DNA of 40,632 nucleotides from positions 1-40,632 of the IMG/VR virus record IMGVR_UViG_2541047846_000008. The stretch is one strand, 5' to 3'. Position 1 is the first letter of the stretch; the number at the start of each line of letters is the position of its first letter. The DNA comes from a virus (Duplodnaviria; Heunggongvirae; Uroviricota; Caudoviricetes). Under the pieces are notes generated by a model. The model searched no databases, had not been told where the DNA came from, and worked only from the letters and a program-made list of their open reading frames with translations. Position numbers and translations under genes: made by a program. Shown piece by piece: positions 681 through 40,632 of this stretch.

Positions 681-989
681 TTAGTGATGTTCTTTGCCCT
701 TCTGTTTGCTTGTTCTGACCTGTTCCCACTCGATACGTCCTTCTTCTCGTCTTTTGTCTATGTATTCCGCAAGATCCTGAATATTGATGCAACGTTTTGC
801 TTTTTGTGATGTGCCGATGCGATATGTTGGAACGGGCAACTTACAAGCGTTTGCTTTTGCTTCTGCCGTGGCTGGACTCATGCCAAAGTACTTTTGGCTA
901 ACTGCTGAGAGTTCAATGTTAGGGGTATTGAATTCAGCCATCAGTAAAAACAAGGTGTTCATAATTTTCTCCATCAAAACCGGCTGCAC
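681..989 (-). CDS. Excisionase-like small DNA-binding protein (PrtN/Xis-like); true start probably an internal Met
   Basis: Small basic protein at the distal end of the leftward early operon; composition and position typical of phage Xis-like regulators. Confidence 0.45.
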   Translation of the reverse strand: MQPVLMEKIMNTLFLLMAEFNTPNIELSAVSQKYFGMSPATAEAKANACKLPVPTYRIGTSQKAKRCINIQDLAEYIDKRREEGRIEWEQVRTSKQKGKEHH

Positions 990-998
990 CCGGGAAAA

Positions 999-2380: not shown

Positions 2381-2742
2381 TATGCTCCAGCCTCCAGTGC
2401 TTTTGGCATTACTGCCCAGTGAGTGATGTTGACGTTTTCAAGGTCCCCGACCTGAAATGTCCACTGCCATTCTCCGGTTTCTTTTTGCCCCCATGTATAC
2501 CAGAGAGAACGCCAGCCAATCAGCCAGCCTTCTCCATTAGCATCAAATAACAGAACACTTTCATTCGCTGGCGGCAGTTCAGCTGACACTGGTATTACTT
2601 TGTTTTCCAGTGCTGCACATTTAGCTTCAAGCGCATCAAATTTACGCACCAGGTATTCAGCATCCGTTTCATTCACTTTCAGATCTCGCGGTACACATTT
2701 CCCGCGAAGAAATCCTTCCATTTCGAAAACATTCATGCGCAT
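2380..2742 (-). CDS. Hypothetical protein, YfdS-like (120 aa)
   Basis: 120-aa ORF in a block whose sizes and order match the CPS-53 yfdP-yfdS block; assignment by analogy, not sequence recall. Confidence 0.5.
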   Translation of the reverse strand: MRMNVFEMEGFLRGKCVPRDLKVNETDAEYLVRKFDALEAKCAALENKVIPVSAELPPANESVLLFDANGEGWLIGWRSLWYTWGQKETGEWQWTFQVGDLENVNITHWAVMPKALEAGA

Positions 2743-3269
2743 TTGCGTAACTCCGATAATTCGTTAAAGCGTTCCATAAACATCCCGTAGGCATGGCCTG
2801 GAGCCAGTGGAATCACGTTGAACATCTCTGTTGCCGGGATACCTTCCAGTACAGGCCAGAAAGAGCCATCATCAAGCCCGAGATCGCGGCGTTCGGTTGC
2901 CAGCATGATGAGATCGGCATATTTCACGGGCGTACTCATAACCGGTGGTAACCCGTATTTCTCACGGATTACGGCGTCTATTTTTTCTTCCATCCGTTTA
3001 TAGTCAGGAAGAAGGCGTTTCAGTGGTGCGGGAATGTCCTGGCAATACGCTTCTGTTGCATCATGCATTAACGCTTCAAAAGCAAATTCCTGCGGCACCA
3101 GCTGGCTGCAAAGAACCGCATGTTGGGCGACGCTGTAGAAGTGCGAAAGATGACCGGCAAAGCGACAGATATTTGAAAGGGAAACCGCGATATCGTTAAT
3201 ATCGATGTCGTCTTTATTTATCCTGTCATAATAAAAATGCTTCCCGGAAAAAGTTTTAATAAATGACAT
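2733..3269 (-). CDS. yfdR: HD-domain metal-dependent phosphohydrolase (YfdR-like)
   Basis: HD-domain His/Asp pattern (AGH..H, MHDATE); 178 aa from the internal Met (track ORF 2733..3296). Confidence 0.65.
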   Translation of the reverse strand: MSFIKTFSGKHFYYDRINKDDIDINDIAVSLSNICRFAGHLSHFYSVAQHAVLCSQLVPQEFAFEALMHDATEAYCQDIPAPLKRLLPDYKRMEEKIDAVIREKYGLPPVMSTPVKYADLIMLATERRDLGLDDGSFWPVLEGIPATEMFNVIPLAPGHAYGMFMERFNELSELRKCA

Positions 3270-3396
3270 TTTGTTCTCCACGTATATGCGCTGCACCGCG
3301 CTGAATTCTGCTAAAAAGAATCCCTCACCATCCGGTGATTATTGAGTTAATTACGTTTCCATAAATGCCCCCGCAGGGGCATTTGCAGTAATGAAA

Positions 3397-5581: not shown

Positions 5582-6667
5582 TTACAGACACTTGACTACT
5601 GTTGAAACATCAGATTCTAGTGCTTCAATTTGTGCTCTATTAGCTTGGGTCGCCATACCATAGATAGTGTAACTCTTATGCTGCAGCCTACTTAAAGGGC
5701 ATCCCTCATGGTTTATTATTGCTGCAAGAGTATTACCATCTTTGACATTTTGAACTCTCTCGAAAGTAGCCACATTTGTGAACAGATGAGGATGTGTATT
5801 TAACAGGTCATCCGTGATTCTTTTGATCTCTTCTGCATGTGATTTGAATGCTTTTGCTGCATCACTTTCATTAGTTCTTGAGCGGTTTTGTACGAAAAGG
5901 TGTAGTTCAGGTAGTTCGATAAGGTTTTGCTTTGCTTCTTTGTTGAAATCTAAGAACATTTCATCTTGTTCTGACTTGTCAATAGACACTCCATAAATAA
6001 GTTTAACAAGGTTTTTTATTCCGCGAATTGATGCAGCATCGGCAGTGCAAGGGATAATTATTCTATTTGCCGCGACTACTCCCAATTCTGTGTAGCTGGC
6101 AAAACTTGGGTTACAATCAATAAAAAATGTTTTTGCTCTGTCAGAAATGTTTTTATCGGCTTCAAAAGATGCTATTAGATCTACCAGCAAAGATCGGCTT
6201 TTCTTCCATGCTTCTTTTACTGGGGATGAGCCAATGTGAGATATTAAGCGTGAACAGATATCAAGATCGACATCACCAGGAAGAATATATAAGTTCTCTG
6301 GCATTTTTGCATTAACATCATGGGCTCGTACAAAGTAAGAAGATTCATTTCCTAAACGAGACAAAGGAGATTTGCTAAAACGCTCCTTGATATAACCTGC
6401 GATTGTAACATTTCTGTCTCGCAATTTATTTAGATTTTCTTCCCCGGTACCATTGCCACCAAGAATAATTTCTGAAACGTTTGATTGAGGGCATGAGTCA
6501 ATAACCACAACATCTTGATCCGGATGAGATATAGCAAACTCAACGGCAAGATTATATGTAAGAAAAGTTTTTCCTACACCACCTTTGTTGTTCCATACTA
6601 AATATTTTGTATTGGTGGAAATCATATCTGCTACCCCATCTGTCGCTTCAGTACGTTCATTAATCAT
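5582..6667 (-). CDS. ParA/MinD-family P-loop ATPase with ~110-aa C-terminal extension; AT-rich moron next to repressor
   Basis: Deviant Walker A NNKGGVGKT near N-terminus, FIDCNPS and IIIPCTAD motifs; 361 aa; AT-rich; own terminator. Confidence 0.75.
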   Translation of the reverse strand: MINERTEATDGVADMISTNTKYLVWNNKGGVGKTFLTYNLAVEFAISHPDQDVVVIDSCPQSNVSEIILGGNGTGEENLNKLRDRNVTIAGYIKERFSKSPLSRLGNESSYFVRAHDVNAKMPENLYILPGDVDLDICSRLISHIGSSPVKEAWKKSRSLLVDLIASFEADKNISDRAKTFFIDCNPSFASYTELGVVAANRIIIPCTADAASIRGIKNLVKLIYGVSIDKSEQDEMFLDFNKEAKQNLIELPELHLFVQNRSRTNESDAAKAFKSHAEEIKRITDDLLNTHPHLFTNVATFERVQNVKDGNTLAAIINHEGCPLSRLQHKSYTIYGMATQANRAQIEALESDVSTVVKCL

Positions 6668-6901: not shown

Positions 6902-7642
6902 TTAAAGTCGATTATATTTAATCGACTCATGAATCAGTGCCTTACCCATAACATAAAGCTGATCTTGCGACTTCTCATCAATGTACCATTTCTCATAGGC
7001 GGGGTTATCCGAAAGAACAGCTAGTTTGTTGCCTTGCATTTGTAGACGTTTAACATGGAAAGTCTTACCGTAAACGAAAGAGTAAACTCCATCAGTCTGG
7101 AAGTGGCGAACGGAAATGTCGACAAACAATCGATCCCCGGAAACAAGAGTTGGGGACATACTATCTCCATTTACCGTCATAACTTTTATATCATTCTGAG
7201 AACGGTTTCCGAAAAGAGAACGGGCATGTTCAGTTGTGAACTCAATGGCGTAGAGCACATCAACATAGTCTGAAAGCATATAGGTCCCAGGTCCTGCGCT
7301 AACGCTAAGATCCAAAACTTCTATCCTGTATACATCGGGCTTTGTTGGATTGGGGATGCTTGCCATTTCCTTACATTCCTCTCTATCTCCAACACCATAT
7401 TCTAGATATGAAGCTGATACTCCAAGAGCCAACGCAAGTTTACTCATGACAGAGACACGTGGCTTCGCTGCGCCGATTGTGTATCGACGAGCCATTTCAT
7501 ATGTAACGCCCACAAGACTTTTGAGTTGAGTGACAGAGATTCCTTTGATTGTCATCAATTCGTTTAGTCTCTTGGCGAAATCTGGATACTTCTGTTCTTC
7601 TACCATAGGTAGAAGATTACTCACATCACACGCGCTAGTCAT
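6902..7642 (-). CDS. CI-like prophage repressor (N-terminal HTH, C-terminal S24 LexA-like autopeptidase)
   Basis: HTH segment followed by VNGDSMSPTL (S24 catalytic Ser) and downstream Lys; divergent from cro; internal ATG start consistent with a leaderless transcript. Confidence 0.85.
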   Translation of the reverse strand: MTSACDVSNLLPMVEEQKYPDFAKRLNELMTIKGISVTQLKSLVGVTYEMARRYTIGAAKPRVSVMSKLALALGVSASYLEYGVGDREECKEMASIPNPTKPDVYRIEVLDLSVSAGPGTYMLSDYVDVLYAIEFTTEHARSLFGNRSQNDIKVMTVNGDSMSPTLVSGDRLFVDISVRHFQTDGVYSFVYGKTFHVKRLQMQGNKLAVLSDNPAYEKWYIDEKSQDQLYVMGKALIHESIKYNRL

Positions 7643-7644
7643 TT

Positions 7645-7680
7645 CTATTTTAAGTAGTTGCAATTTGCTATTTTAAGTAG
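7645..7680. promoter_or_regulatory. Operator region of the cI/cro switch: two copies of CTATTTTAAGTAG
   Basis: 13-bp partly palindromic direct repeats at about 7645..7657 and 7668..7680 between divergent cI and cro. Confidence 0.5.
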
Positions 7681-7976: not shown

Positions 7977-8004
7977 ACGTAACCACAGAAACGAGGAATG
8001 AACC

Positions 8005-8589
8005 GTGGGTAAAGAACCTGAATGGAAAGTTGATAAGCAACCAGCATGGCTGGTGGCAGCAATACGAAGAACGATTGCTGATTTACCTCATGGCTATGAG
8101 GAAGCAGCGGAAATTCTTGGTTTGTATAAATCTGATGATATCACCCCAGCGAAAGATCAATTGCATAACAGACTGCGTAGCGGTGGGGATCAAATTTTTC
8201 CACTTGAGTGGGCCATGGTTTTACAGGATGCCAGTGGTACCAGGCATGTAACGGATGCGATAGCGCGTCGTAGTAATGGGGTGTTTGTGCCGCTGGTGGA
8301 CATTGATGACATTGACAATGGTGACATTAATCAGCGGCTGATGGAGTCAATAGAATGGATTGGCAAGCATTCCCAGTACTTACGCAAGGCAACTGCTGAT
8401 GGAGTTATTGACCAGGCTGAGCGTGAGCAAATCGAAGAGAACAGCTACCAAGTAATGGCGAAGTGGCAGGAGCATTTAACACTGTTATTTCGTGTTTTTT
8501 GTGCGCCGGAAAAGAGTAACGCCCGCGAGTGTGCAGCTCCGGGCGTCGTGGCGTCGATTGCTTCTGGTTGTGGAGAAACTAACGCATGA
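8005..8589 (+). CDS. YdaT-like / CII-type early regulator (GTG start)
   Basis: 194-aa ORF directly after the cro-like gene, the lambdoid cII position. Confidence 0.45.
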
Positions 8590-8924
8590 ACAGTTTAACC
8601 ACACACTACCGTCGCTCGCAACTGATTGCGCTTCCTGTACCGGGTGGAAAAGCGAAGGTGGAGTATTGCTATGCGGTGAATGTACCAGGTGACAGGGAAA
8701 TTGTAACCCACAGCTTTGCAGAGTGGGCTGTGGGTGATTTCAACCGGCAGAAGGAGACAGTCCTTTGCAACAAGTTAACCGCTGGTTCAAAGATCACTAC
8801 GGAGTGCCCGTCAGAGTCATTCGTTGGGAACCGGAAACACAACGGGTTATCTACCTCCGCGAAGGCTATGAGCATGAGTGCTTCAGCCCGCTCGAACAGT
8901 TTCGTCGTAAATTCAGGGAAATAG
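8586..8924 (+). CDS. Hypothetical protein, probably frameshifted (C-terminal half continues in another frame to about 8944)
   Basis: ATGA overlap with upstream gene; frame-0 C-terminus is low-complexity while the alternate frame from about 8738 reads protein-like to a stop overlapping the next start. Confidence 0.3.
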
Positions 8925-8933
8925 AGGTCGGTC

Positions 8934-9875
8934 ATGAGCACTAAATTAACCGGCTATGTATGGGATGGTTGCGCTGCGTCAGGCATGAAGTTATCCAGCG
9001 TGGCAATTATGGCCCGCCTGGCTGATTTCAGTAATGACGAAGGTGTGTGCTGGCCATCAATTGAAACCATTGCCCGCCAGATTGGCGCGGGGATGAGCAC
9101 CGTCAGAACGGCTATCGCACGGCTGGAAGCAGAAGGCTGGTTAACGCGTAAGGCGCGTCGCCAGGGTAACCGCAATGCGTCGAATGTTTATCAGCTTAAC
9201 GTTGCGAAGCTTCAGGCAGCGGCATTTTCTCAACTGTCAGATTCTGACCCGTCAAAATCTGACGCATCAAAATCTGACCAGTCAAAATTTGATGCGTCGA
9301 AATCTGGCAAAAAAGCGGGTTTTCACCCGTCAGAATCTGGCGGGGATCCGTCAGTAAAATCAAAACATGATCCGTCAGATAAAAAAACTTCTCGTCCGGA
9401 CGCTTCGCAACCGGACACGCAGACGGCTGAACAGGAGTTTTTAACTCGCCATCCTGATGCGGTTGTATTCAGCCCTAAAAAGCGCCAGTGGGGAACGCAG
9501 GATGATTTGACCTGCGCACAGTGGCTCTGGAAAAAAATCATCGCCCTGTACGAGCAGGCCGCCGAATGTGACGGCGAGGTGGTTCGTCCCAAAGAACCGA
9601 ACTGGACAGCCTGGGCAAACGAAATTCGCCTTATGTGTGTGCAGGATGGTCGTACTCACAAACAAATCTGCGAGATGTACAGCCGCGTCAGCCGCGATCC
9701 GTTCTGGTGCCGTAACGTGCTCAGCCCGTCGAAGCTGCGGGAAAAATGGGATGAGCTTTCCCTGCGCTTATCGCCGTCCGTCAGCACGTACACCGAAAAA
9801 CGCGAAGACCCGTACTTCAAATCCAGTTACGACAACGTGGACTACAGCCAGATCCCGGCAGGATTCAGGGGGTGA
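8934..9875 (+). CDS. Replication initiation protein (N-terminal HTH, central repeat linker, DnaT-like C-terminal region)
   Basis: N-terminal HTH typical of phage replication initiators; SKSD-type pentapeptide repeats encoded by DNA iterons. Confidence 0.65.
   Translation: MSTKLTGYVWDGCAASGMKLSSVAIMARLADFSNDEGVCWPSIETIARQIGAGMSTVRTAIARLEAEGWLTRKARRQGNRNASNVYQLNVAKLQAAAFSQLSDSDPSKSDASKSDQSKFDASKSGKKAGFHPSESGGDPSVKSKHDPSDKKTSRPDASQPDTQTAEQEFLTRHPDAVVFSPKKRQWGTQDDLTCAQWLWKKIIALYEQAAECDGEVVRPKEPNWTAWANEIRLMCVQDGRTHKQICEMYSRVSRDPFWCRNVLSPSKLREKWDELSLRLSPSVSTYTEKREDPYFKSSYDNVDYSQIPAGFRG
9237..9311 (+). repeat. Iteron array (five 15-bp phased repeats, core TCAAAATCTGAC), candidate origin of replication
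   Basis: tcagattctgacccg / tcaaaatctgacgca / tcaaaatctgaccag / tcaaaatttgatgcg / tcgaaatctggcaaa, with degenerate copies to about 9389 and an A-rich tract. Confidence 0.55.
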
Positions 9876-16076: not shown

Positions 16077-16507
16077 AGATGAGTTATTGGGCGCTCATTT
16101 TAACGTTTATTGCTTGTGTCGCTGGTGGTCTTGTCTGGTCAGCGAATCACTATCATGGAAAGTTTCTGGAGGAGCAGAAGCGTGCTGATGCTGCGGAACA
16201 GCGAGCTGATTCTACTGAGGCTATCACCGCGAATGTTCTGCGTACTATGGCAATAACGAACATCATTCAGGAGGCGAATCAACATGCAAAACAGCAGATC
16301 GCACTGGAGTCACAGAGAACCCAGGAAGATATCAAAGTGGCTGTTGCGGATGATGATTGTGCTTCACGTCCTGTGCCTGCTGCCGCTGCTGACCGGTTGC
16401 GGAAGTACGCGAACAGTTTACGTAACAGTACCTCCAATTCCGCTTCCAGCTACTCTGACTTTGGAAACGCCAGTACCGCACATACCAGATACCCTGACCT
16501 ATGGTGA
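16073..16507 (+). CDS. Rz-like inner-membrane spanin (i-spanin)
   Basis: N-terminal TM helix then charged coiled-coil region; follows endolysin. Confidence 0.7.
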   Translation: MKMSYWALILTFIACVAGGLVWSANHYHGKFLEEQKRADAAEQRADSTEAITANVLRTMAITNIIQEANQHAKQQIALESQRTQEDIKVAVADDDCASRPVPAAAADRLRKYANSLRNSTSNSASSYSDFGNASTAHTRYPDLW

Positions 16508-16598
16508 CAGCCTGGAGTTGAATGTGAGTCTGTTGTCGGCGTTGGAACAGTGTAATTTTGATAAAGCGACAATAAAAAGTATTGATGCTAACAAGTAA
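16350..16598 (+). CDS. Rz1-like outer-membrane lipoprotein spanin (o-spanin), nested in and extending beyond Rz
   Basis: Alternate frame within Rz; signal peptide with lipobox LLTGC; Pro-rich mature region. Confidence 0.65.
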   Translation: MMIVLHVLCLLPLLTGCGSTRTVYVTVPPIPLPATLTLETPVPHIPDTLTYGDSLELNVSLLSALEQCNFDKATIKSIDANK

Positions 16599-16660
16599 AA
16601 GAGCCTGCACCTTTATAGAGATGATTCCATGTTAATATCGCTCCTCTAACGGGAGGCATT

Positions 16661-17152
16661 ATGATGGATTGGAATATGTGGTCTGCTATTGGGGCTTGTG
16701 GTTCGGCTATCGCGTCTTTTGGGGCGTTGTGTTATGCCCGTAAGGCGTTAAACACATGGAATAGACAGGAGCAATTTAAAGTAAAGTTAGAGTTTAAGAG
16801 AGCTTTACTTCAGTTGGAGGATGCCTTTGAGGCAATGCCTGATAATTGGAATTCCGTACAGTATAGAATAGCCAAAACATTTGCGTCTCAGAGGGGCAAC
16901 GATATATATAATGGAGTTGTTGAGGCTGAAAAACAGCTGTTTTATAAAAAACAAAACCTTAATTTAGCGTACGGACATTCCGTACAGGCATGGGTTTTGT
17001 GTGAAGAACTGTTTAAAGACAATACTATTCATGATGAATGGAAAGCTTTCAGAATTAGTTATGATAATTACATTCTGAATGGTGGGAACAAAAATGATTA
17101 TTTGCCAATGATAAAAAATATATATTCAAAAATTCCTGTGTTTAATGGTTGA
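16661..17152 (+). CDS. Membrane-anchored hypothetical protein (AT-rich moron between lysis and packaging)
   Basis: 163 aa; one N-terminal TM segment then soluble domain; GGGAGG RBS; AT-rich. Confidence 0.6.
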   Translation: MMDWNMWSAIGACGSAIASFGALCYARKALNTWNRQEQFKVKLEFKRALLQLEDAFEAMPDNWNSVQYRIAKTFASQRGNDIYNGVVEAEKQLFYKKQNLNLAYGHSVQAWVLCEELFKDNTIHDEWKAFRISYDNYILNGGNKNDYLPMIKNIYSKIPVFNG

Positions 17153-17200
17153 TTTCTATACGAAATGGACAATATGTTCCATCTTTTTTAGGGAAATTAT

Positions 17201-27397: not shown

Positions 27398-29222
27398 ATT
27401 TGAGCTTAAGGCGTTGATCACCGGTGTCGACAGGCTTTCTCCCGCGCTGTCGAAAATGCAAAAGAAAATCCGGGGATTTAAACGCCAGGCGGAAGAAGCG
27501 TCACAGGGTGGGCTGGCGCTTGGTGGCGGACTGGCAGCGGGTCTGACGCTTTCCCTGAAATCTTATGCCGATCAGGAAAACGCCGCCACCGGGCTGAAAG
27601 TCGCCATGATGGATGCGAACGGCGAGGTTGGAAAGAGCTTTCAGGACATCAATAAACTGGCTATTGGCCTGGGTAACCAGCTACCTGGTACAACGGCTGA
27701 TTTCCAGAACATGATGCAGATGCTGGTGCGTCAGGGGATCCCGGCAGAAAACATTCTGGGTGGTGTGGGTAAAGCGACAGCTTATCTTGCGGTACAACTG
27801 AAAAAAACACCGGAAGCGGCTGCTGAGTTTGCAGCAAAGATGCAGGATGCTACCGGAACGGCGTCAGAAGACATGATGGGGCTGTTCGACACTATCCAGA
27901 AGGCGTTTTATCTGGGCGTTGACGATACCAACATGTTGTCCTTCTTCACTAAAACCAGTTCTGTTCTGAAGATGGTGAACAAGGACGGTCTTCAGGCTGC
28001 GCAGAGCCTTGCCCCCATCAGCGTCATGATGGATCAGATGGGGATGAACGGGGAGTCGGCAGGTAATGCCCTGCGAAAAGTTATCCAGTCCGGATTAAGC
28101 GTTAAGAAAATCAGGGACGTTAATAAAGTTATGGCCCGCCAGAAACTCGGGGTACAGCTCGATTTTACTGACGGCAAAGGAAGTTTTGGCGGTCTTGATA
28201 ACATGTTCAGGCAACTGGCAAAGCTGCGAAAACTGACCGACGTTAAGCGAACAGGTGTACTTAAGGCAATATTTGGTGATGATGCCGAAACCCTTCAGGT
28301 GGTCAATGCACTAATCGATAAAGGAAAGGATGGCTACGATCAGATCCAGCAGAAGATGAATAAACAGGCCAGCCTGAATAAACGTGTTCAGGCACAGCTT
28401 GGTACGCTGTCCAACCTGTGGGAGGCAATGACAGGGACCGCAACTAACGGCCTTGCGGCTATTGGCGGCGCATTTTCTGGTGACGCTAAAAATATCACAC
28501 AATGGCTGGGGGAGTTGGGGGAGAAATTCACGAAGTTTGCGGATGAAAATCCCCGGGTTATTCGCGGCGTCGTCGGGCTTGCTGCCGGTCTTGCGATTCT
28601 GAAACTGGGATTGATGGGCGTGGGCAGTGCCATCAGTATTGTCAGCAGGATTATGTCGATGACGCCGATTGGCATGATTGCGACGGCGATTGCTCTGGCT
28701 GCGGGATTAATTATCACTAACTGGGATGTTGTCGGACCTTATTTTAAGAAGCTCTGGGAAACCATTGGTCCTTATTTTGAGGCTGGCTGGGAACTTCTGA
28801 AGAAAGTTTTTGCCTGGTCGCCGCTGGGAATGGTGATCAATAACTGGGGACCGGTTGTTAAGTGGTTTCAGGATATGTGGGACAAGCTGAAGCCAATTAT
28901 TGAGTGGTTTACCGACAGTTCCGGTGACACGGTCGATGCCATTAACTCTGCGCAGTGGGGCGCGGGTGCTTATGATGCTTATGGGACGGGAATACCGGCG
29001 CGGGGATACACACCTTATCCGGCGGTGGATCCGGCTCAGTCAAACAACGCCTCCGATGCCACAGGCTCGAATCCCTTCATGATTAACAAAGCTTCTGTGC
29101 CAAAAGTTGATGGTGAGATCAAGGTATCTTTTGTGAATTCGCCTCCGGGTATGCGGGTTATGGAAACGCGATCCAGCGGTTTTGATGTCAGCCATGATGT
29201 TGGCTATACGTGGTTCAGGTAG
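27390..29222 (+). CDS. Tail tape measure protein
   Basis: 610 aa, helical N-terminal half, Gly-rich hydrophobic central TM-like region; conserved position. Confidence 0.85.
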   Translation: MAEFELKALITGVDRLSPALSKMQKKIRGFKRQAEEASQGGLALGGGLAAGLTLSLKSYADQENAATGLKVAMMDANGEVGKSFQDINKLAIGLGNQLPGTTADFQNMMQMLVRQGIPAENILGGVGKATAYLAVQLKKTPEAAAEFAAKMQDATGTASEDMMGLFDTIQKAFYLGVDDTNMLSFFTKTSSVLKMVNKDGLQAAQSLAPISVMMDQMGMNGESAGNALRKVIQSGLSVKKIRDVNKVMARQKLGVQLDFTDGKGSFGGLDNMFRQLAKLRKLTDVKRTGVLKAIFGDDAETLQVVNALIDKGKDGYDQIQQKMNKQASLNKRVQAQLGTLSNLWEAMTGTATNGLAAIGGAFSGDAKNITQWLGELGEKFTKFADENPRVIRGVVGLAAGLAILKLGLMGVGSAISIVSRIMSMTPIGMIATAIALAAGLIITNWDVVGPYFKKLWETIGPYFEAGWELLKKVFAWSPLGMVINNWGPVVKWFQDMWDKLKPIIEWFTDSSGDTVDAINSAQWGAGAYDAYGTGIPARGYTPYPAVDPAQSNNASDATGSNPFMINKASVPKVDGEIKVSFVNSPPGMRVMETRSSGFDVSHDVGYTWFR

Positions 29223-29249
29223 TGTACAAAATGATTAATGTGTTTTTGT

Positions 29250-29295
29250 CTGGCATAATTTGGGTTTTCAGCTTTAAGTAGTTAATATAATCATT
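29250..29295 (+). promoter_or_regulatory. Promoter-like -10 elements upstream of the secreted-protein moron
   Basis: CATAAT and perfect TATAAT hexamers in an AT-rich gap; -35 elements weak. Confidence 0.3.
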
Positions 29296-29321
29296 CCTTA
29301 CAAATGATTGAAGGGATGATT

Positions 29322-29816
29322 ATGCGTATCTTTGTTTTTTTTATATCTGCACTTTTATCTTTTAACTTGGCTGCGGAAGAGTGTAAGTTCAGCTTTAATG
29401 AGTCAGAATTAATCTCTTCTATAGGTATTGCACCAGTTAAGCAAGAGATAATAAAGGATGAAGGAATAACTAAGCGGCAATATGAATTCAGAAGAGAATT
29501 ATCTTCTGAAGAAATGCTTAGTGATGACGCTGATGAAAAATATGAGCCGCAGTTTTATATATCTGTTTATAATCCATCATGCCCACAAAAGGTTATTGTT
29601 TGGTTTTTCAAAGACAATAAAAACACAATGGATTTAAGTAATGAGGTCCTTGCTGGTAGAGCGTTCAAGTATTTAACTGGTGTTAATGAAAGTATTTTTG
29701 AAAATAAAATGAAAAAGTTTTTAAAGGTACAGTCATTTGAATCTTTTGATGAAAGGACAGATTCTAAATTTATAAAGAGTGGTGATATTTATTCCATTGA
29801 TGTTCAACTCAGATAG
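29322..29816 (+). CDS. Secreted/periplasmic hypothetical protein (AT-rich moron inside the tail operon)
   Basis: Signal-peptide-like N-terminus MRIFVFFISALLSFNLAAEE; GAAGGG RBS; AT-rich; own promoter-like and terminator-like elements (track ORF starts 29304). Confidence 0.6.
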   Translation: MRIFVFFISALLSFNLAAEECKFSFNESELISSIGIAPVKQEIIKDEGITKRQYEFRRELSSEEMLSDDADEKYEPQFYISVYNPSCPQKVIVWFFKDNKNTMDLSNEVLAGRAFKYLTGVNESIFENKMKKFLKVQSFESFDERTDSKFIKSGDIYSIDVQLR

Positions 29817-29835
29817 TAATTAAAAATATTAGGTT

Positions 29836-29891
29836 CCCGCCACATCTTCTGCGATGTAAATAACTGACAAAGCAGATTTGGCGGGTTTTTT
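29836..29891 (+). terminator. Terminator-like structure after the moron
   Basis: CCCGCCA ... TGGCGGG outer stem around internal small hairpins, followed by TTTTTT. Confidence 0.45.
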
Positions 29892-29906
29892 GTATCCGGA
29901 GTTTAT

Positions 29907-31235
29907 ATGACGTGGAAAGACAGGCTTCAGGATGCGTCATTTCGCGGCGTACCGTTTAAGGTTGAAGAAGAAAGTGCGGGAACCGGTCGCCGTGTGGAAA
30001 CACACGAATATCCGAACCGCGACAAGCCCTATACCGAAGATCTGGGAAAAGTCACTTTCCGCCCGTCCATCACAGCTTATGTGGTGGGAGATGACTGCTT
30101 TGACCAGCGCGATCGCCTGATTGAAGCGCTGAATAAACCCGGTCCCGGCACGCTTGTCCACCCGACATATGGTGAGCTGAAAGTCTGTGTTGACGGGGAA
30201 GTTCGGGTCAGCACATCGAAAAGTGAAGGGCGTATTGTCCGCTTTGACCTGAAGTTTGTCGAAGCAGGAGAACTCTCTTACCCCACATCAGGTGCGGCGA
30301 CGGCGCAAACGCTGATGTCATCCTGTTCTGCACTGGATGACTGCATCAGTGACAGCTTCAGCGGTTTCAGTATCGATGGTGTGGCGGATTTCGTGCAGAA
30401 CGACGTCGTCGGTAATGCCAGCACAATGCTTGGGTATGTTTCTGATGCGATGAAAGTGGTGGATTCTGCCGTATCGGATGCCGCCAGGCTGTTGCAGGGG
30501 GATATCTCGGTACTTCTGCCGCCGCCATCGTCAGGCAAAAATTTCGTTGAGCAGGTGCAGAAAATGTGGCGTACCGGGAAACGCCTTTATGGTAACGCCA
30601 GCGACCTGGTCACCATGATCAAAACGCTTTCCGGTGTCAGCCTCGGCAGCGATCTGCAACCGCGCGGCGTCTGGAAAACGGACAGTAAAACCACCGCCAC
30701 GGCGACGCAGCAGCGTAACGTGGTTGCCAGCACCCTTCGTACGACCGCAATCAGCGAAGCGGCGTATGCCGTCACCCGATTGCCTGCGCCAACAATTTCT
30801 GCGGTGATGCAGAATGCCGCAGTGGGGCAGGCAACAACACCCGCGCAGAGCACTGGCTGGCCTTCCGTCACGCATCCGGCACTGAACAATGCACCGGCGG
30901 TGAAAAACACGGTTGACCTGCCGACGTGGGAAGAACTGACTGACATTCGCGACACACTGAATACGGCAATTGATAAGGAGTTGTCCCGTACAACCAGTGA
31001 TGCGCTGTTTCTGGCGCTGCGCCGGGTGAAAGCAGATCTGAATGCGGATATCAACACGCGCCTTGAACAGTCTGCACGGATCATTCAGCGCACGCCGGAT
31101 GAGGTTTTACCCGCGCTGGTGCTGGCGGCGACCTGGTTTGATAACGCGGCGCGTGACGCGGACATTATCCGGCGTAATGCCATTACACATCCCGGCTTTG
31201 TGCCGGTGATCCCTCTGAAGGTGCCAGTGCAATGA
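29907..31235 (+). CDS. Mu gpN-like DNA circularisation protein (tail component)
   Basis: 442 aa; N-terminal region typical of Mu N-like proteins; follows tape measure. Confidence 0.75.
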   Translation: MTWKDRLQDASFRGVPFKVEEESAGTGRRVETHEYPNRDKPYTEDLGKVTFRPSITAYVVGDDCFDQRDRLIEALNKPGPGTLVHPTYGELKVCVDGEVRVSTSKSEGRIVRFDLKFVEAGELSYPTSGAATAQTLMSSCSALDDCISDSFSGFSIDGVADFVQNDVVGNASTMLGYVSDAMKVVDSAVSDAARLLQGDISVLLPPPSSGKNFVEQVQKMWRTGKRLYGNASDLVTMIKTLSGVSLGSDLQPRGVWKTDSKTTATATQQRNVVASTLRTTAISEAAYAVTRLPAPTISAVMQNAAVGQATTPAQSTGWPSVTHPALNNAPAVKNTVDLPTWEELTDIRDTLNTAIDKELSRTTSDALFLALRRVKADLNADINTRLEQSARIIQRTPDEVLPALVLAATWFDNAARDADIIRRNAITHPGFVPVIPLKVPVQ

Positions 31236-34907: not shown

Positions 34908-35654
34908 ATGCATCGTATAGACACGAAAACCGCGCAGAAGGATAAGTTCGGCGCGGGTAAGAACGGTTTTACCCGTGGTAACCCCCAGACCGGCACACCT
35001 GCCACCGATCTGGATGATGACTACTTTGACATGTTGCAGGAAGAACTTTGTAGCGTGGTGGAGGCCTCCGGTGCCAGCCTGGAGAAGGCGCGGCACGACC
35101 AGTTGCTTACCGCGCTTCGTGCGCTGCTGTTAAGCCGCAAGAATCCGTTTGGCGATATCAAATCGGATGGCACGGTGGAAACGGCTCTCGAAAACCTTGG
35201 TTTGGGAGAAGGTGCTCCAGCTATTGGCGTTCCGTTCTTCTGGCCGTCCGCTGCAATGCCAAATACTGTAATCGACAGCTGGTCCAGTATGGTGTTTTTG
35301 AAGTTCAACGGCGCGAAATTCTCTGCCACTGATTATCCTGTGCTGGCGAAAGTGTTTCCTTCGCTGGTATTACCTGAAGCCCGCGGTGATTTCATTCGTA
35401 TCTGGGATGACGGGCGAGGTGCAGACGGTGGTCGCGAATTATTAAGCTGGCAGGAAGCTACAAACTTTTCTCAGTTTGCCGGGAATATAGTCGGAGGTGC
35501 GGGACACGCAATTAACTTTCATGATGGCATCGCCGGAAATCAGCCAGGATTTTCACGATTTAATTTCACCAGTAACTCTGTGGGTGATGGTGTGAATTTT
35601 GTTGCTGTCAGACCGCGAAATATTGCATTTAACTTTCTGGTGAGGGCTAAATAA
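34908..35654 (+). CDS. Tail fibre protein (constant N-terminus to about 35216, variable C-terminus inside invertible segment)
   Basis: 248 aa; crossover site inside the gene; an alternative C-terminal exon lies on the opposite strand. Confidence 0.8.
35187..35216. repeat. Left recombination (crossover) site of the invertible segment, inside the tail fibre gene
   Basis: ctcgaaaaccttggtttgggagaaggtgct; matches the inverted partner at 36925..36954 in 20 of 21 positions; resembles hix/gix-type sites. Confidence 0.5.
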
Positions 35655-36247
35655 TGAAACCTGTTTTTGATGAAAATGGGCTGGCCACAGTGCCGGGCGA
35701 TATGCGTTGTTTTTATTATGATGCTGAAACATCTGAGTATACGGGCTGGTCTGATGAATATATTAATACTGGCGTAAGTATGCCCGCCTGTTCCACTGGT
35801 ATTGACCCGGGCGAAAACATTCCGGGGAAAGTGGCAGTATTTACGGGTAAGGGATGGAGCCATGAAGAAGACTATCGCAATGAGACTGTTTACTCAACAG
35901 AAAATGGCGCAGCTGTTACAGTGGATTATATCGGTGCCATCAAAAACGGTTATGTCACGCTTTCACCGTTAACGCCATATGATAAATGGGATGGTGAGAA
36001 ATGGGTGACAGATACTGAGGCACAACACGGTGCCGCAGTAGAAGCAGCAGAAGCACAGCGCCAGTCACTGATTGATGCAGTAATGGCTTCCATTAGTCTG
36101 ATTCAGCTGAAATTACAGGCCGGACGGAAACTGACTCAGGCAGAAACAACCCGACTTAACACCGTGCTGGATTACATTGACGCGGTGACGGCAACAGATA
36201 CCAGCACCGCGCCGGATGTCATCTGGCCTGAACTGCCGGAGGCGTAG
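35654..36247 (+). CDS. Tail fibre assembly protein (Tfa), active orientation
   Basis: 197 aa; conserved C-terminal motif TSTAPD(V/I)xWPExP shared with the inverted copy. Confidence 0.8.
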
Positions 36248-36647
36248 GCCATTCAATATCGGGTGCTGTTGAAGTATCAACACGCATCAGCAGCACACGG
36301 TATTTCTTCCATTCGGTGAGAGTTGAAGTTTCTTCATCAGTTGCGATATCAGCATCAACAGCATCCTGACGCCAGGATATTTCACTGTCAGCTTTTTCCC
36401 GTAATTGGGATTTTTTAACTTCAGCAATAGCTATTAATTCCTTTTTGGTCGGCTGAGGAATATCTATCAGTGCTGGTTTTCCATTCAGTGTTCCAATCTG
36501 TTTTCCTGGTGGAATATCCATAAATAACTTTTTATGTTCTTCCTCACTGACTATTACACCATCATCAGGCCACAGACCTGATGCCTCAAATTTTTCTTTC
36601 TCCGATATGGGGAAAAAGCCATTTGATTTAGCGCTCCATACGTACAT
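36219..36647 (-). CDS. Tail fibre assembly protein (Tfa), alternative copy in inverted orientation
   Basis: 142 aa; C-terminal motif [15 protein letters not shown]; convergent with the other Tfa. Confidence 0.75.
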
Positions 36648-36648
36648 A

Positions 36649-36915
36649 TCAATACCCCACCGCTATAATGTCCACATTAAATCCCCCGGGACCTGCCTGC
36701 CAGATGCTGGCCCCTGTTAATGATTTTGTTTGATGAACAACCGCCACATTTGCTGGTGATTGTGTTTCAGTTGTTACAGTACCGATATCATTCCAGTTAA
36801 TTGAGATGGAATAGTTCGTTGTTGTAAACGACCGGGGGAAAGTTATGTGTCTTGCATTGGTGCCAATAGGAAATCCAAGATAAACACGCTGAATTATCAT
36901 TCCTCCAGGTAACAT
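36649..36915 (-). CDS. Alternative tail fibre C-terminal segment (promoterless; frame stays open upstream to the crossover site)
   Basis: Upstream in-frame sequence reads ..[12 protein letters not shown].., matching ..ENLGLGEGA.. of the expressed fibre. Confidence 0.6.
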
Positions 36916-36924
36916 AACCCAGTT

Positions 36925-36954
36925 AGCACCTTCTCCAAAACCAACCTTTCAAAT
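36925..36954. repeat. Right recombination (crossover) site of the invertible segment
   Basis: agcaccttctccaaaaccaacctttcaaat, inverted relative to the site at 35187..35216. Confidence 0.5.
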
Positions 36955-37986: not shown

Positions 37987-38030
37987 CTGTGTTTGTATAC
38001 AGTATTATTTTTAACTGTATAGATAAACAG
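37987..38030. promoter_or_regulatory. Two tandem LexA (SOS) boxes upstream of the dinI-like gene
   Basis: taCTGTgtttgtatACAGta (37987..38002) and aaCTGTatagataaACAGtg (38015..38030); both CTGT-N8-ACAG. Confidence 0.65.
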
Positions 38031-38032
38031 TG

Positions 38033-39130
38033 TCAAGAGGCCTTATTTCTGCTCCTTTGGAGCTCTTCAAAACGATTATGTAAAGATTTCGGATACAGTT
38101 CGGTATATACCTGCCATAGCACGTTTAATGAACGATGCCCTGTAACCTGGGCGACTTCCTCAATACTAAAACCAGCCTCAAATAAGCGACTTGCCCCTTC
38201 TCTACGCAAATCATGGTATCGCAGATCTTTAATACCTAATTTGCTTCTTACCCTCTGGAATCCCGCAGTAACAGAAGTGCTGTTATATGGAAAAATGAAT
38301 TCTGATTTTTTGGGTTGTCGTTGGACGATATCCCAGGCTTCCCCAAGCAAGGCTACTTTCATATGGTTGCCTTCCTTTTTACGTGGATCTTTCCTGTCTC
38401 TTACGAGTATGGATTTTTGTTCCTGATCGAGATCCTCCCATCGTAATCGGCATACTTCACCGATTCGCATACATGACCACACAGAAAATTTGAGGATATC
38501 AACGAACGGAATTTTTGAGCATTTATGTGTAGATCGTTGTTGAAGACCTTCAATGAGCATGTCCAGTTCATCAGATGCCGGTCTACGATTACGACGATTT
38601 GATTTACCAATTAAACCAAGTTTAAGTAGATATGGACGAGCGGCTTTTGCTGGGTTTGATGTGTAATTAATTCCATATACAGGTTTGGCAGCATCCAGAA
38701 CACTGCCAAGATAACTAACATCGTGGCTAACTGTAGCTGGACCTGCACCAGCGTTGTTTCTTAGCCTGCAATGTTCAATTACGTCATTTTCTGTCAGTTC
38801 AGATAGTTTGAGCGCGGAGACGTCACTATCCATAAGCAGTTCCAGCACATATCTTTTAGTACGGCCTGCTTTACCTCCGGCATTTGGGTCATTTAAATAT
38901 TTGTGTAGTAAGTCACGGACTGTAAGTCCGTCAACTGCATTTGATGATGGAATGCCATATAGATCTAATTCCATCACTTTCTGTGTGCCCCATGTTTTGG
39001 CATGAGCATGTTTAGGGAATGTTTTACTTTCCCTGTAAGTGATAACACCTTTTTCTTTGATAATCACATTACAGCGATAGCGTGGTGTGCCATCGGATTT
39101 TAGTCGTTTCTCTATGTTATAGTATGCCAT
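38033..39130 (-). CDS. int: Tyrosine integrase (DusA-targeting type)
   Basis: 365 aa; C-terminal catalytic region with RxxR ... HDLRR ... Y pattern; adjacent to dusA. Confidence 0.9.
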   Translation of the reverse strand: MAYYNIEKRLKSDGTPRYRCNVIIKEKGVITYRESKTFPKHAHAKTWGTQKVMELDLYGIPSSNAVDGLTVRDLLHKYLNDPNAGGKAGRTKRYVLELLMDSDVSALKLSELTENDVIEHCRLRNNAGAGPATVSHDVSYLGSVLDAAKPVYGINYTSNPAKAARPYLLKLGLIGKSNRRNRRPASDELDMLIEGLQQRSTHKCSKIPFVDILKFSVWSCMRIGEVCRLRWEDLDQEQKSILVRDRKDPRKKEGNHMKVALLGEAWDIVQRQPKKSEFIFPYNSTSVTAGFQRVRSKLGIKDLRYHDLRREGASRLFEAGFSIEEVAQVTGHRSLNVLWQVYTELYPKSLHNRFEELQRSRNKAS

Positions 39131-39218
39131 TACACGACCTCGTTATTTCGGGTTCCCATAAAACGTGGGAACCTGTGCGGGAACCTAACGCGAGAAAAAT
39201 AGCCTGAAATGTTCAAAA

Positions 39219-40256
39219 ATGCACGATAATCATGAAGCACAAAAAATTAATCAAACCAGCGTGATGCCTGAAAAAACTGGTGTTTACTGGAATTCTCGGT
39301 TTAGCATTGCTCCTATGCTTGACTGGACGGACAGACATTGCCGTTATTTCCTGCGTCTGCTTTCCCGCAATACGTTGCTGTATACCGAAATGGTGACCAC
39401 AGGGGCGATTATTCACGGTAAAGGTGATTACCTGGCGTACAGTGAAGAAGAACATCCGGTAGCGTTGCAACTCGGGGGTAGCGATCCGGCGGCGCTGGCA
39501 CAGTGTGCGAAGCTGGCAGAAGCGCGCGGATATGATGAGATCAACCTGAATGTCGGCTGCCCGTCTGACCGGGTGCAGAACGGCATGTTTGGTGCGTGTC
39601 TGATGGGTAATGCGCAGCTGGTTGCCGACTGCGTGAAAGCGATGCGCGATGTGGTGTCGATTCCGGTGACGGTGAAAACGCGTATTGGCATCGATGATCA
39701 GGACAGCTATGAATTTCTCTGCGATTTCATCAACACCGTTTCCGGCAAAGGTGAGTGTGAGATGTTCATCATCCACGCACGTAAAGCCTGGCTTTCTGGG
39801 TTAAGTCCGAAAGAAAACCGTGAGATCCCGCCGCTCGATTATCCGCGTGTGTATCAACTGAAGCGTGACTTTCCGCATCTGACGATGTCGATTAACGGTG
39901 GTATCAAGTCGCTGGAAGAAGCTAAAGCGCATTTGCAACATATGGATGGCGTGATGGTCGGGCGCGAGGCGTATCAGAATCCGGGGATTCTGGCGGCGGT
40001 AGACCGAGAGATTTTTGGTTCCTCGGATACCGATGCCGATCCGGTGGCGGTAGTGCGCGCCATGTATCCGTACATTGAGCGTGAACTCAGCCAGGGTACG
40101 TATCTCGGCCATATTACCCGGCATATGCTGGGCTTGTTCCAGGGTATTCCTGGCGCGCGGCAGTGGCGGCGTTATTTAAGTGAAAATGCCCATAAAGCGG
40201 GTGCAGACATTAATGTGCTGGAACACGCGCTCAAACTGGTGGCGGATAAGCGTTAA
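39219..40256 (+). CDS. dusA: tRNA-dihydrouridine synthase A
   Basis: 345 aa; conserved Dus motifs; followed by pspG as in E. coli. Confidence 0.9.
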
Positions 40257-40389
40257 CTTTTCACCAAAAAGTAGTCAAATTCACCACGCCCTGCGCACCG
40301 TCGCGGGGTGTTTTGCTGTTAAATCAACAGATTATTTTTGGCATGATTCTTGTAATGCCAGCAAGAGATTTCATATTTGGGAGAGCATC

Positions 40390-40632
40390 ATGCTGGAACT
40401 ACTTTTTGTAATTGGCTTTTTTGTCATGCTGATGGTCACCGGTGTTTCGTTGCTGGGTATTATCGCCGCGCTGATTGTGGCGACGGCCTTTATGTTCCTC
40501 GGCGGTATGCTGGCATTGATGATTAAGTTGCTGCCGTGGCTGCTGTTGGCGGTTGCGGTGGTGTGGGTGATCAGGGCAATTAAAGCACCAAAAGTGCCGA
40601 AATATCAGCGTTATGACCGCTGGCGTTACTAA
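40390..40632 (+). CDS. pspG: Phage shock protein G
   Basis: 80-aa highly hydrophobic protein ending KVPKYQRYDRWRY; internal ATG of track ORF 40180..40632. Confidence 0.8.
   Translation: MLELLFVIGFFVMLMVTGVSLLGIIAALIVATAFMFLGGMLALMIKLLPWLLLAVAVVWVIRAIKAPKVPKYQRYDRWRY

Follow-up and report, generated by a model that had tools for sequence, protein, structure and literature searches.

The window analyzed here (the whole stretch of 40,632 nucleotides) represents a temperate phage of the SfV/SfII-like kind whose contractile tail is of Mu type, and the source of the locus is an E. coli prophage. Rfam and tRNA scans of the window returned no matches. The locus lies between the genes for the tail tape-measure protein (TMP) and a Mu N-like DNA-circularization/baseplate-hub protein (N), which border a slot occupied by a small gene that we refer to as the cargo gene. 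It comprises the following features:

27390..29222, + strand: TMP gene, coding for 610 aa (PF10145, 9.8e-27; PHROG tape-measure families); left border of the cargo slot
29223..29321, + strand: AT-rich spacer of 99 nt upstream of the cargo gene, with -10-like hexamers and poor -35 elements
29286..29324, + strand: predicted 5' RNA hairpin, in which the TATAAT arm (29286-29299) pairs with the Shine-Dalgarno sequence (SD; 29310-29316) and the AUG (29322-24)
29322..29816, + strand: cargo CDS, 164 aa, 31% G+C, PHROG 8976 (a family without assigned function)
29322..29375, + strand: predicted Sec/SPase I-type signal peptide, residues 1-18, with an n-h-c layout and predicted cleavage between LAA and EE
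29836..29891, + strand: terminator-like hairpin (CCCGCCA...TGGCGGG with an internal 5-bp helix, then T6)
29898..31235, + strand: ribosome-binding site (RBS) and gene of the Mu N-like protein (PF07157, 3.7e-34; PHROG 184)

The N gene codes for 442 aa from an ATG at 29907, with its RBS (GGAG) at 29898-29901, and forms the right border of the slot. In alignments with SfV and SfII, similarity ends within the final ~4 codons of the TMP gene (~29210) and restarts at ~29893, 5' of the N gene. The + strand ORF within this interval spans 29304 to 29816, and its start is set at the ATG at 29322 by alignment of homologs, the PGAP annotation of a near-identical prophage of E. coli M8, and the SD (GAAGGGA, 29310-29316). 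A preliminary description had reported here an AT-rich ORF with a signal-peptide-like N-terminus, -10-like hexamers, and a stem-loop with a T-run, all of which are present where it had placed them. The strong AT-richness is likewise borne out: G+C is 0.31 in the CDS versus 0.51 in the TMP gene and 0.56 in the N gene, a fall of >20 points that is far beyond chance, and the other alleles of the family all show values of 0.33-0.41 versus 0.47-0.58 in the surrounding genes. The match to the PHROG 8976 profile extends over the full length of the protein (E 2.8e-107; residues 1-164 aligned to positions 1-164 of 164).

The N-terminus of the cargo protein (MRIFVFFISALLSFNLAA, followed after the predicted cleavage point by EEC) carries an Arg as its second residue, then a hydrophobic core of 12 residues, with small residues occupying -3 and -1. 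Parsed as MR-IFVFFISALLSF-NLAA and then EEC, it displays the hallmarks of a Sec-type signal, namely a positively charged n-region, an h-region within the range of 10-15 residues, the small residues just noted, and no lipobox, since the Cys lies at +3 after the predicted cleavage. The n-h-c layout is kept, while the sequence itself varies, in all 31 distinct alleles examined. The mature protein is acidic (~146 aa, pI 4.9), with exactly two Cys in 30 of these 31 alleles; in protein alignments of the family C87 is invariant and C21 nearly so, and the mature protein probably contains one disulfide. AlphaFold2 produced a confident model (pLDDT 88, pTM 0.80), in which only residues 1-20 are of low confidence (pLDDT <55). 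The secretion signal proposed earlier is thereby upheld, being of Sec type by sequence criteria, and the conserved signal layout together with the low-pLDDT N-terminus makes it very probable that the product is periplasmic, as had been surmised. The model has no solved structural relative in the PDB, including no match to Spackle, and a PDB sequence-profile search with the family likewise gave no match. A search of BFVD returned a single match to a gut-virome protein (TM 0.63, 13% identity), the name of which is probably spurious.

Scans of the cargo protein against Pfam and NCBIfam gave no matches; no known immunity protein, lysozyme inhibitor, or virulence factor resembles it, and no homology to a characterized superinfection-exclusion protein (gp15, SieA, Sim, Sp, Imm, Ltp, Llp, Cor) was found in sequence or structure. 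The family is tiny and has no named member: a word-indexed search of 5.8 billion proteins yielded 16 clusters, and a full HMMER profile search of 1.84 billion cluster representatives yielded 12 family representatives, with a range confined to enterobacterial and Pantoea phages. Members occur in E. coli, commensal as well as pathogenic, from a variety of hosts, and a plant-leaf Pantoea phage also carries one. The order TMP-cargo-N is found in all ~60 loci examined, including those from Kosakonia, Atlantibacter, Kluyvera, and the Pantoea phage AH07, and the family motifs are retained down to 28-36% identity, with the ORF intact across several genera. Within the E. coli alleles, pN/pS is ~0.2 at unsaturated divergence, so that the gene is under purifying selection. 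The cargo gene co-diverges with TMP and N (Spearman 0.82-0.85) down to 36% identity, a pattern for which linkage alone suffices. A recent random insertion is not supported, as the family is tied to one place and the tail module has diverged along with it. A search for flanking direct repeats or att-like sites at the insertion found only short chance repeats, and the locus is better explained by cassettes exchanged via homologous recombination through the conserved flanks. Between the alleles L012 and L021, the flanks show a dS of ~0.5 while the synonymous sites of the cargo gene are saturated, and the exchanged patch takes in the TMP C-terminus and the N N-terminus.

Related prophages do differ, as had been anticipated, in what they carry between TMP and N: the slot is either empty or holds one of six unrelated genes. 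In SfV, SfII, and SfI the cargo gene is absent, TMP and N are separated by a 45-nt hairpin-containing spacer, and the flanking DNA at the junction is >95% identical to that of the window. The TMP-N site is empty in about 40% to half of the E. coli relatives (~1100 genomes with the tail module, judged from a sample of 60). This sample, drawn from 1115 E. coli hits, comprises 25 records with an empty site, five with the present cargo gene, ~9 with a 176-aa TM protein, four with a bPH_1 protein, four with a lipoprotein, and two with a TM/OB-fold protein. In nine further sampled records the query match was limited to N and the downstream genes; of the two that were inspected, one had another tape-measure gene, after which a 162-aa secreted protein is encoded, and in the other the junction was empty and the tail genes were degraded. 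Across 5426 complete E. coli genomes, the present cargo gene occurs in 84, the 176-aa TM protein in 174, the bPH_1 protein in 24, the lipoprotein in 54, the TM/OB-fold protein in 70, and the 162-aa secreted protein in 101, so that the six families together account for about 500 genomes, or roughly one in ten. Of the six cargo types, five are exported or anchored in the membrane (a rough P of ~0.01 if 30% of proteins are so), the bPH_1 type being cytoplasmic. The TM/OB-fold cargo matches PHROG 8545, labeled 'superinfection exclusion Sie-like', at 1.5e-49, the label being an annotation and not functional proof. Profile-sequence comparison of the present family with three of the other cargo proteins detected no relationship.

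Viable isolates include both carriers of the cargo gene (SKA5, AH07) and phages that lack it (SfV, SfII, SfI); hence the gene is dispensable for the phage. We conclude that it is almost certainly optional cargo in a hotspot. A moron, in the formulation of Juhala and Hendrix (summarized in PMC3594210), is extra DNA between genes that are adjacent in close relatives, with a deviant composition, its own promoter and terminator, and expression from the prophage. The present locus has the extra DNA, judged against SfV, SfII, SfI, and ~40% of the sampled E. coli relatives, and the G+C content of the cargo gene departs from that of its neighbors. The moron or defense signature that had been read from the cassette stands as regards an optional gene of deviant composition. 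No known defense model matches: PADLOC-DB v2 gave zero families at E<=1 for the cargo protein and four alternative cargo proteins (the 176-aa TM, bPH_1, lipoprotein, and TM/OB-fold types).

The transcriptional signals fared less well. The stem-loop at 29836-29885 with its T-run at 29886-91 is present and folds beyond shuffled sequences (dG -22.3 kcal/mol, z = -2.6, with 1 of 200 shuffles folding equally well), but it is not peculiar to the cassette. The corresponding position at empty and otherwise-loaded sites bears a compact C(UUCG)G hairpin plus T-run, and a hairpin lies just 5' of the RBS of N both where the slot is empty and in almost all loaded variants. The hairpin plus T6 therefore cannot be assigned to the cassette and, by comparison of these sites, appears to be a backbone feature of the slot. 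Upstream, -10-like hexamers do occur at the places reported, namely TGGCATAAT at 29251-29259 and TATAAT at 29286-29291, the latter 30 nt before the ATG, but they are no better than expected by chance in AT-rich DNA, because 31% of shuffles score at least as high as the best promoter candidate in a PWM scan. A sigma-70 consensus scan found no site on the + strand. The claim of a self-contained unit with its own promoter also runs up against the more distant alleles, which lack the spacer: in L072, L074, L075/L086, and the Pantoea phage AH07, the cargo gene starts 12-17 nt past the TMP stop or overlaps it, so that there is no room for an intergenic promoter. As these alleles are packed like ordinary late genes, expression in the lysogen may not be a trait of the family. 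For the allele in the window, we see about an even chance that it has a promoter of its own.

The start region of this allele is also predicted to fold into a stable 5' hairpin (dG -16.5 kcal/mol, z -3.9) that persists in a 141-nt context. The probability that the RBS is unpaired is 0.04, versus 0.39+/-0.10 with shuffled upstream sequence, and none of 100 shuffles gives a value as low. No covariation was found in the hairpin, the E. coli copies being nearly invariant, and in a comparison that took in both alleles of the family and other cargo types, RBS occlusion is significant in only the window allele and the L021-type allele, two of the five family lineages tested. As modeled, the hairpin would block translation initiation on read-through transcripts, and a transcript starting just downstream of the TATAAT would be free of it.

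Because the slot in relatives is either empty or mostly filled with envelope-targeted genes, the cargo gene probably serves in phage exclusion or host conversion and not as part of the tail. We tentatively favor, at close to an even chance, the reading that it is an accessory moron-type gene for a soluble, acidic, Sec-exported periplasmic protein that most likely mediates superinfection exclusion at the envelope. Taken by itself, a phage-exclusion role is quite possible although short of probable, and a defense role is plausible by analogy and from the neighboring cargo types. We propose that the protein might shut out superinfecting phages at the level of the cell envelope, most likely through periplasmic interference with DNA delivery by related contractile-tailed phages. 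It could do so by attaching to the tape-measure or N protein upon ejection, or to a periplasmic factor of the host on which these depend; HK97 gp15, TP-J34 Ltp, P1 Sim, and T4 Spackle work in a comparable manner for other phages. Expression could follow two routes. Late read-through transcription is expected because a Q-type antitermination gene is annotated upstream in the near-identical prophage segment of E. coli M8. In the lysogen, the TATAAT at 29286 could also drive independent transcription, and the 5' hairpin would then leave only the promoter-proximal transcript translatable. A more far-reaching proposal, which we consider speculative and unlikely in its entirety, is that the family represents a previously unrecognized soluble periplasmic anti-injection class specific for Mu-type contractile tails, binding and co-evolving with ejected TMP/N, that the TMP-N junction is a dedicated envelope-exclusion hotspot, and that in the E. 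coli allele a hairpin-embedded promoter, as the source of the sole translated transcript, restricts the protein to lysogens.

Among the alternatives, the cargo gene might specify a late-expressed lytic-cycle factor, exported to protect the infected cell or the progeny, instead of a moron expressed in the lysogen. It could exclude secondary infection during the latent period, as do T4 Imm and Spackle, or prevent the loss of progeny on lysing cells and debris, as does T5 Llp. The gene is on the same strand within the late operon with no terminator upstream of it, the distant alleles have an RBS alone between them and the TMP stop, and the promoter of the window is not above chance; moreover, there are lytic-phase precedents for envelope exclusion in Spackle (PMC7677548) and Llp (PMC9586334), and receptor blocking by prophage proteins as a means of preserving progeny is also on record (cited in PMC12952977, ref. 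9). However, the SD and AUG of the window allele are buried in a predicted stable hairpin on read-through transcripts, which makes efficient late translation less likely, a soluble periplasmic protein could not mask the outer face of a receptor, and the low G+C and the replaceable cassette behavior are those of classical morons. On balance we regard a lytic-cycle factor as doubtful.

The protein could instead be a lysogenic-conversion or host-fitness factor without a role in phage exclusion, one that alters envelope physiology from the periplasm and benefits the lysogen in the gut, for example via immunity to bacteriocins or T6SS effectors, stress or serum resistance, or modulation of the O-antigen or outer-membrane proteins. 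The exported product, the optional nature of the gene, and its presence in both commensal and pathogenic E. coli are compatible with this, as are the known morons with such roles, lambda Bor and Lom (PMC3594210), and the envelope-acting nature of the SfV-group phages, which are serotype converters (PMC3851460). Against it, the confinement of the family to one junction of one tail module would be unusual for a general fitness gene, the protein does not resemble known immunity proteins, lysozyme inhibitors, or virulence factors, and the family is shared by a plant-leaf Pantoea phage and gut bacteria, so that no single host niche is implied. A purely host-directed role hence appears unlikely.

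A sub-lineage-specific tail structural or assembly protein, acting for instance with the tape measure or the hub, would account for the fixed place between TMP and N and the co-divergence with both. We rejected this assignment as largely refuted and very improbable: the predicted cleavable signal peptide would remove the protein from the compartment of tail assembly, the cytoplasm, SfV, SfII, and SfI are viable without the gene despite their near-identical flanks, and it is absent from most E. coli relatives and replaced elsewhere by unrelated genes, in hundreds of prophages. The lack of an annotated function and the small size of the family might suggest a decaying or selfish, functionless hitch-hiker ORF, but this is contradicted by the pN/pS, the motifs kept at low identity, the intact ORF in several genera, and the confident fold prediction, and is the least credible of all.

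If superinfection exclusion is indeed what the cargo gene mediates, the slot offers six small genes, each by itself a candidate for a new mechanism of phage resistance at the envelope; they would be simple to test, being single genes with natural 'empty' and 'swapped' isogenic backbones. To our knowledge, no exclusion protein that targets the tape measure or the hub is known from contractile-tailed temperate phages. The results would bear on the host range of phages used in therapy and on the influence of prophages on competition in the gut. The conserved slot hairpin and the predicted RBS-occluding 5' structure additionally provide a tractable case of cargo insulation inside a late operon. 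Were the protein a host-fitness factor instead, it would still present an uncharacterized periplasmic fold.

The predicted 5' structure is reminiscent of gene e of T4, for which McPheeters et al. are said to have described, in 1986, transcript-specific translation, with a hairpin that sequesters the RBS on upstream-initiated transcripts. In both instances a promoter in the 5' arm of the hairpin would give a translatable mRNA, whereas the arrangement at the cargo gene is a structural prediction with a candidate promoter, significant in two of the five lineages tested. At the level of genome organization, the slot resembles the hotspots of P2-like phages and P4-like satellites, in which a fixed backbone position accommodates many swappable unrelated genes (Rousset et al. 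2022, cited in PMC10884400). The present slot differs in phage group and position, in holding single small genes that mostly code for envelope proteins, and in giving no PADLOC match (five of the six cargo types scanned).

Several exported entry blockers encoded by phages or prophages provide analogies for the product itself. Among the lipoproteins TP-J34 Ltp, T5 Llp, and phi80/N15 Cor, Ltp targets the tape measure (PMC10883804, PMC3952083) and Llp is encoded beside its related tail gene (PMC9586334). One of the alternative cargoes at the slot is also a lipoprotein, whereas the cargo protein itself has no lipobox and no detected homology to these proteins. T4 Spackle, a periplasmic exclusion protein, is likewise a small phage protein with a cleavable signal peptide that acts in the periplasm on components of the incoming phage (PMC7677548). 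It differs in being all-helical, the product of an early gene of a lytic phage, and an inhibitor of the gp5 lysozyme, whereas the gene annotations of the tail module of the cargo gene, considered as annotations only, include no lysozyme domain. P1 Sim is a further small protein with a cleavable signal peptide that effects superinfection exclusion in the periplasm, where it is directed at components of the incoming phage.

Gene 15 of HK97 is a moron in the tail operon that adjoins the tape-measure gene and blocks DNA entry (PMC3594210). Like the cargo gene, it is an extra gene of deviant composition, absent from close relatives, with an envelope-targeted product. Its exclusion depends on the tail/tape-measure region of the incoming phage (PMC3594210, PMC10883804), and escape from both Ltp and gp15 proceeds via the tape measure (PMC10883804). 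In contrast to the soluble periplasmic product encoded between the tape measure and the hub of a myovirus-type tail module, gp15 is a small inner-membrane protein of a siphovirus with its gene between those of the chaperone and the tape measure; it has a demonstrated promoter and prophage expression, and the two proteins have no sequence relationship.

The window belongs to the SfV/SfII group of temperate phages. It matches the prophage of E. coli M8 at 97.6–99.6% over ~28 kb, and its cargo-gene region is 99.4–99.9% identical to those of this dusA-adjacent prophage and of Escherichia phage SKA5. The genes run in the order sheath, tube, chaperone, tape measure protein (TMP), cargo ORF, N, and Mu P/Q/V/W-like baseplate genes, with the cargo ORF oriented like the tail genes:

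27390-29222 (+), tape measure (PF10145)
29322-29816 (+), cargo ORF
29907-31235 (+), Mu N-like DNA-circularisation/hub protein (PF07157)

The cargo ORF has in-frame ATGs at 29304, 29316, and 29322, of which the first is annotated as the start in the SKA5 record and the third by PGAP. Homologs all start with M-R/H at the place of the third ATG, and since the Shine-Dalgarno GAAGGGA (29310-29316) suits this codon, the product is 164 aa. This agrees with the AT-rich ORF of that approximate length in the preliminary description. The gene has a G+C of 0.31, versus 0.51 for TMP and 0.56 for N.

SfV, SfII, and SfI align to both flanks at 94–96% DNA identity and have no cargo gene, with just ~45 nt from the TMP stop to the N start; this spacer is filled by a hairpin (TCCCAC-TCCG-GTGGGA, followed by T6) annotated as a terminator in the SfII record. 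The divergence of the window from these phages begins at about the last four TMP codons and ends at the T-run and ribosome-binding site (RBS) of N. With the two flanks joined as a query against complete E. coli genomes, the tail module was found in 1107 of 5426, and the junction contents were read in an even-step sample of 60 records.

Contents of the TMP–N junction (sampled records; genomes by direct search)
Empty site: 25/60
Cargo gene studied: 5/60; 84 genomes
176-aa protein with an N-terminal TM segment: ~9/60; 174 genomes
Cytoplasmic bPH_1 protein (PF08000): 4/60; 24 genomes
225-aa lipoprotein with an LLGGC lipobox: 4/60; 54 genomes
TM-anchored tRNA_anti-like OB-fold protein, opposite strand: 2/60; 70 genomes
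162-aa signal-peptide protein, unrelated: 101 genomes (direct search)

In 9 of the 60 records the match is limited to N and the genes downstream; of two such records inspected, one has a different TMP gene with the 162-aa signal-peptide protein behind it; in the other the junction is empty and the tail genes are degraded. Related prophages were to be checked for different cargo between these genes, and they indeed have either an empty site or one of six unrelated genes; profile comparison of the studied family with three of the other cargo families found no relationship. All of the other cargo types are low in G+C (0.34–0.42), and five of the six types are exported or membrane-anchored. The OB-fold cargo matches PHROG 8545, annotated as ‘superinfection exclusion Sie-like’ (1.5e-49), while none of the five cargo types scanned, the studied gene included, has a PADLOC match. 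Of the four sequence-level hallmarks of a moron, the studied gene shows two: it is extra DNA by comparison with close relatives, and its composition deviates. The other two are a promoter and a terminator of its own, each represented by a candidate sequence.

The cargo family comprises only 16 clusters at 90% identity among 5.8 billion proteins and only 12 representatives at 50% identity among 1.84 billion, and occurs in only 2 of 185,579 species-representative genomes (Kluyvera and Atlantibacter). The order tube-TMP-gene-N-P holds at every examinable locus, namely ~60 spanning Kosakonia, Atlantibacter, and Kluyvera genomes, metagenomes, IMG/VR contigs, and Pantoea phage AH07, an isolate with a 42% identical protein. 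Cargo divergence follows flank divergence (Spearman 0.82–0.85), with non-synonymous divergence ~2x faster in the cargo than in the flanks. For one pair of loci (L012/L021), flank dS is ~0.5, the cargo synonymous sites are saturated, and the divergent patch reaches into the C-terminus of TMP and the N-terminus of N, a pattern that indicates allele exchange by recombination and not fast evolution alone. At unsaturated divergence within E. coli the pN/pS of the cargo gene is ~0.2, like that of N, and the protein is therefore functional. The family is small, old, and locked to the TMP–N position.

Other regions also vary among these phages. A 163-aa ORF at 16661-17152 (+), with ~33% G+C, a hydrophobic N-terminal segment, and no Pfam or PADLOC match, has the Rz/Rz1 lysis genes on one side and the HNH endonuclease/terminase on the other; M8, otherwise 98–99% identical, has a GrlR-family regulator gene in its place, and no alignment to M8 is seen over window 16423-17190. 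This site looks like a second cargo hotspot. At 5582-6667 (-) lies a gene for a 361-aa ParA/MinD-like P-loop ATPase (PF13614, 3e-16; 35–38% G+C), absent from M8; it is directly downstream of a 253-aa ORF (6902-7663, -) positioned like the M8 gene annotated as a LexA-family repressor, a location typical of prophage-expressed accessory or defense genes. Some relatives (L018 from Atlantibacter, at 7980-9778, and loci L067 and L084) have one or two additional ORFs separating N from the P-like baseplate gene (in L018 two, of 506 and 93 aa, with no Pfam match on record). One gene further downstream than the cargo site, this interval may also be a variable slot. The M8 prophage (compare window 1-2600 and ~38000-40632, and locus L027 at 1985-3282) sits within dusA: a 5' fragment of the gene lies to its left and an intact copy, beside the integrase, to its right. 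Its left end encodes a YafO-family toxin and a hypothetical protein, and the window aligns only partially to that end. The tail-fiber and fiber-assembly region (35211-36928), adjoining a Pin-like recombinase annotated in M8, is unlike M8 save for a short match in reverse (35966-36281), consistent with an invertible host-range segment.

The N-terminus of the cargo protein, previously described as signal-peptide-like, is a classic signal peptide of the Sec/signal peptidase I type, with Arg2, a hydrophobic core of 12 residues, and LAA|EE. Across 31 distinct alleles its sequence varies freely, with the n-h-c pattern and small -3/-1 residues retained; a Cys always lies two residues past the predicted cleavage site, which is therefore no lipobox. 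All mature alleles but one have exactly two Cys (C87 invariant and C21 nearly so in protein alignments), and most are acidic. By sequence criteria the protein thus qualifies as periplasmic. An AlphaFold2 model, for which 13 family sequences were used, has high confidence (pLDDT 88, pTM 0.80; low only at residues 1–20) and predicts an α + β domain with seven strands and four main helices. Foldseek found no PDB relatives below E 0.05, and BFVD gave a single match, a gut-virome protein (TM 0.63, 13% identity), leaving the model without a convincing structural relative. The protein has no match in Pfam, NCBIfam, or PADLOC and falls in PHROG family 8976 (‘unknown function’); neither sequence nor fold places it in a characterized exclusion or defense family.

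The preliminary description had viewed the gene as a self-contained transcription unit. Its -10-like hexamers are present in the 99-nt spacer 5' of the gene (TATAAT, 29286-29291; TGGCATAAT, 29251-29259), but both have a poor -35; a consensus scan of the window found no + strand promoter, and the best PWM candidate is equaled by 31% of shuffles. Other cargo types have somewhat better candidates 32–36 nt 5' of their ATGs (shuffle fractions 0.02–0.05). The stem-loop with T-run 3' of the gene (29836-29891; dG -22.3, z -2.6) is likewise real, but an equivalent lies directly 5' of the RBS of N at empty sites and also in every distant lineage and every + strand cargo variant, usually as a very stable C(UUCG)G form (CCCGCTTCGGCGGG-T7). 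It would hence belong to the slot and not to this cassette. With weak promoter candidates, a slot-wide hairpin, and spacerless distant alleles, an independent unit is not established. The M8 segment that matches the window has, further upstream, a gene annotated as a Q-type antiterminator, and in lambdoid biology late transcription is then expected to pass through such a hairpin. The G+C-rich hairpin occurs at the equivalent position in loci L002, L003, L006, L007, L009, L012, L016, L018, L021, and L072-L086, usually as CCCGC-UUCG-GCGGG, and is kept even where flanking proteins are only 52–59% identical; that of the window has ~35 nt inserted in the loop. In the late operon it might act as a terminator that insulates the baseplate genes, as an mRNA stabilizer, or as a recombination anchor.

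Upstream of the gene, 29286-29299 (including TATAAT) pairs with 29311-29324 (including the Shine-Dalgarno and AUG) in a predicted hairpin (dG -16.5 kcal/mol, z -3.9) that persists in a 141-nt context. The unpaired probability of the RBS is 0.04, versus 0.39±0.10 with only the upstream sequence shuffled (0/100 shuffles as low), and a transcript begun ~7 nt 3' of TATAAT would have no 5' arm and folds, by prediction, into an open form. Read-through late mRNA would then be poorly translatable and promoter-proximal mRNA translatable, a transcript-dependent logic that is the mirror image of that of T4 gene e. The L021-type allele has an unrelated spacer with similar occlusion (0.11; 1/100 shuffles); occlusion was not seen in three other alleles or in the other cargo types, and the E. 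coli copies vary too little for covariation to be assessed. As a working hypothesis, the folding predictions suggest promoter-dependent translatability.

The cargo gene is optional, replaceable, compositionally foreign, under purifying selection, and position-locked. In the distant lineages L072, L074, and L075/L086 and in AH07, its start lies 12–17 nt past, or overlaps, the TMP stop; with the RBS alone intervening, it there resembles an ordinary late gene, and a late-acting role in the lytic cycle is conceivable, if rather doubtful. A contribution to host fitness unrelated to phage seems unlikely for a gene held between TMP and N at every examinable locus. The signal peptide, together with viable relatives that lack the gene, effectively rules out a structural role in the tail. 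Tentatively, we favor an action at the envelope, most likely the exclusion of incoming phage, because most of what the slot carries is exported proteins, with one annotated as Sie-like, and because both neighbors, TMP and N, exit the virion during infection. Morons in tail operons and accessory hotspots are well-known concepts; what is new is the TMP–N slot with its six families of cargo, and the family of the protein studied. Our literature search, of incomplete coverage, found no paper describing the TMP–N junction as a hotspot or naming the cargo protein. The exclusion reading draws further on soluble periplasmic exclusion proteins such as T4 Spackle (PMC7677548) and on the location beside the tape measure, which mirrors that of the founding moron, HK97 gene 15; the block to DNA entry imposed by the product of gene 15 depends on the tail and the tape measure (PMC3594210, PMC10883804).
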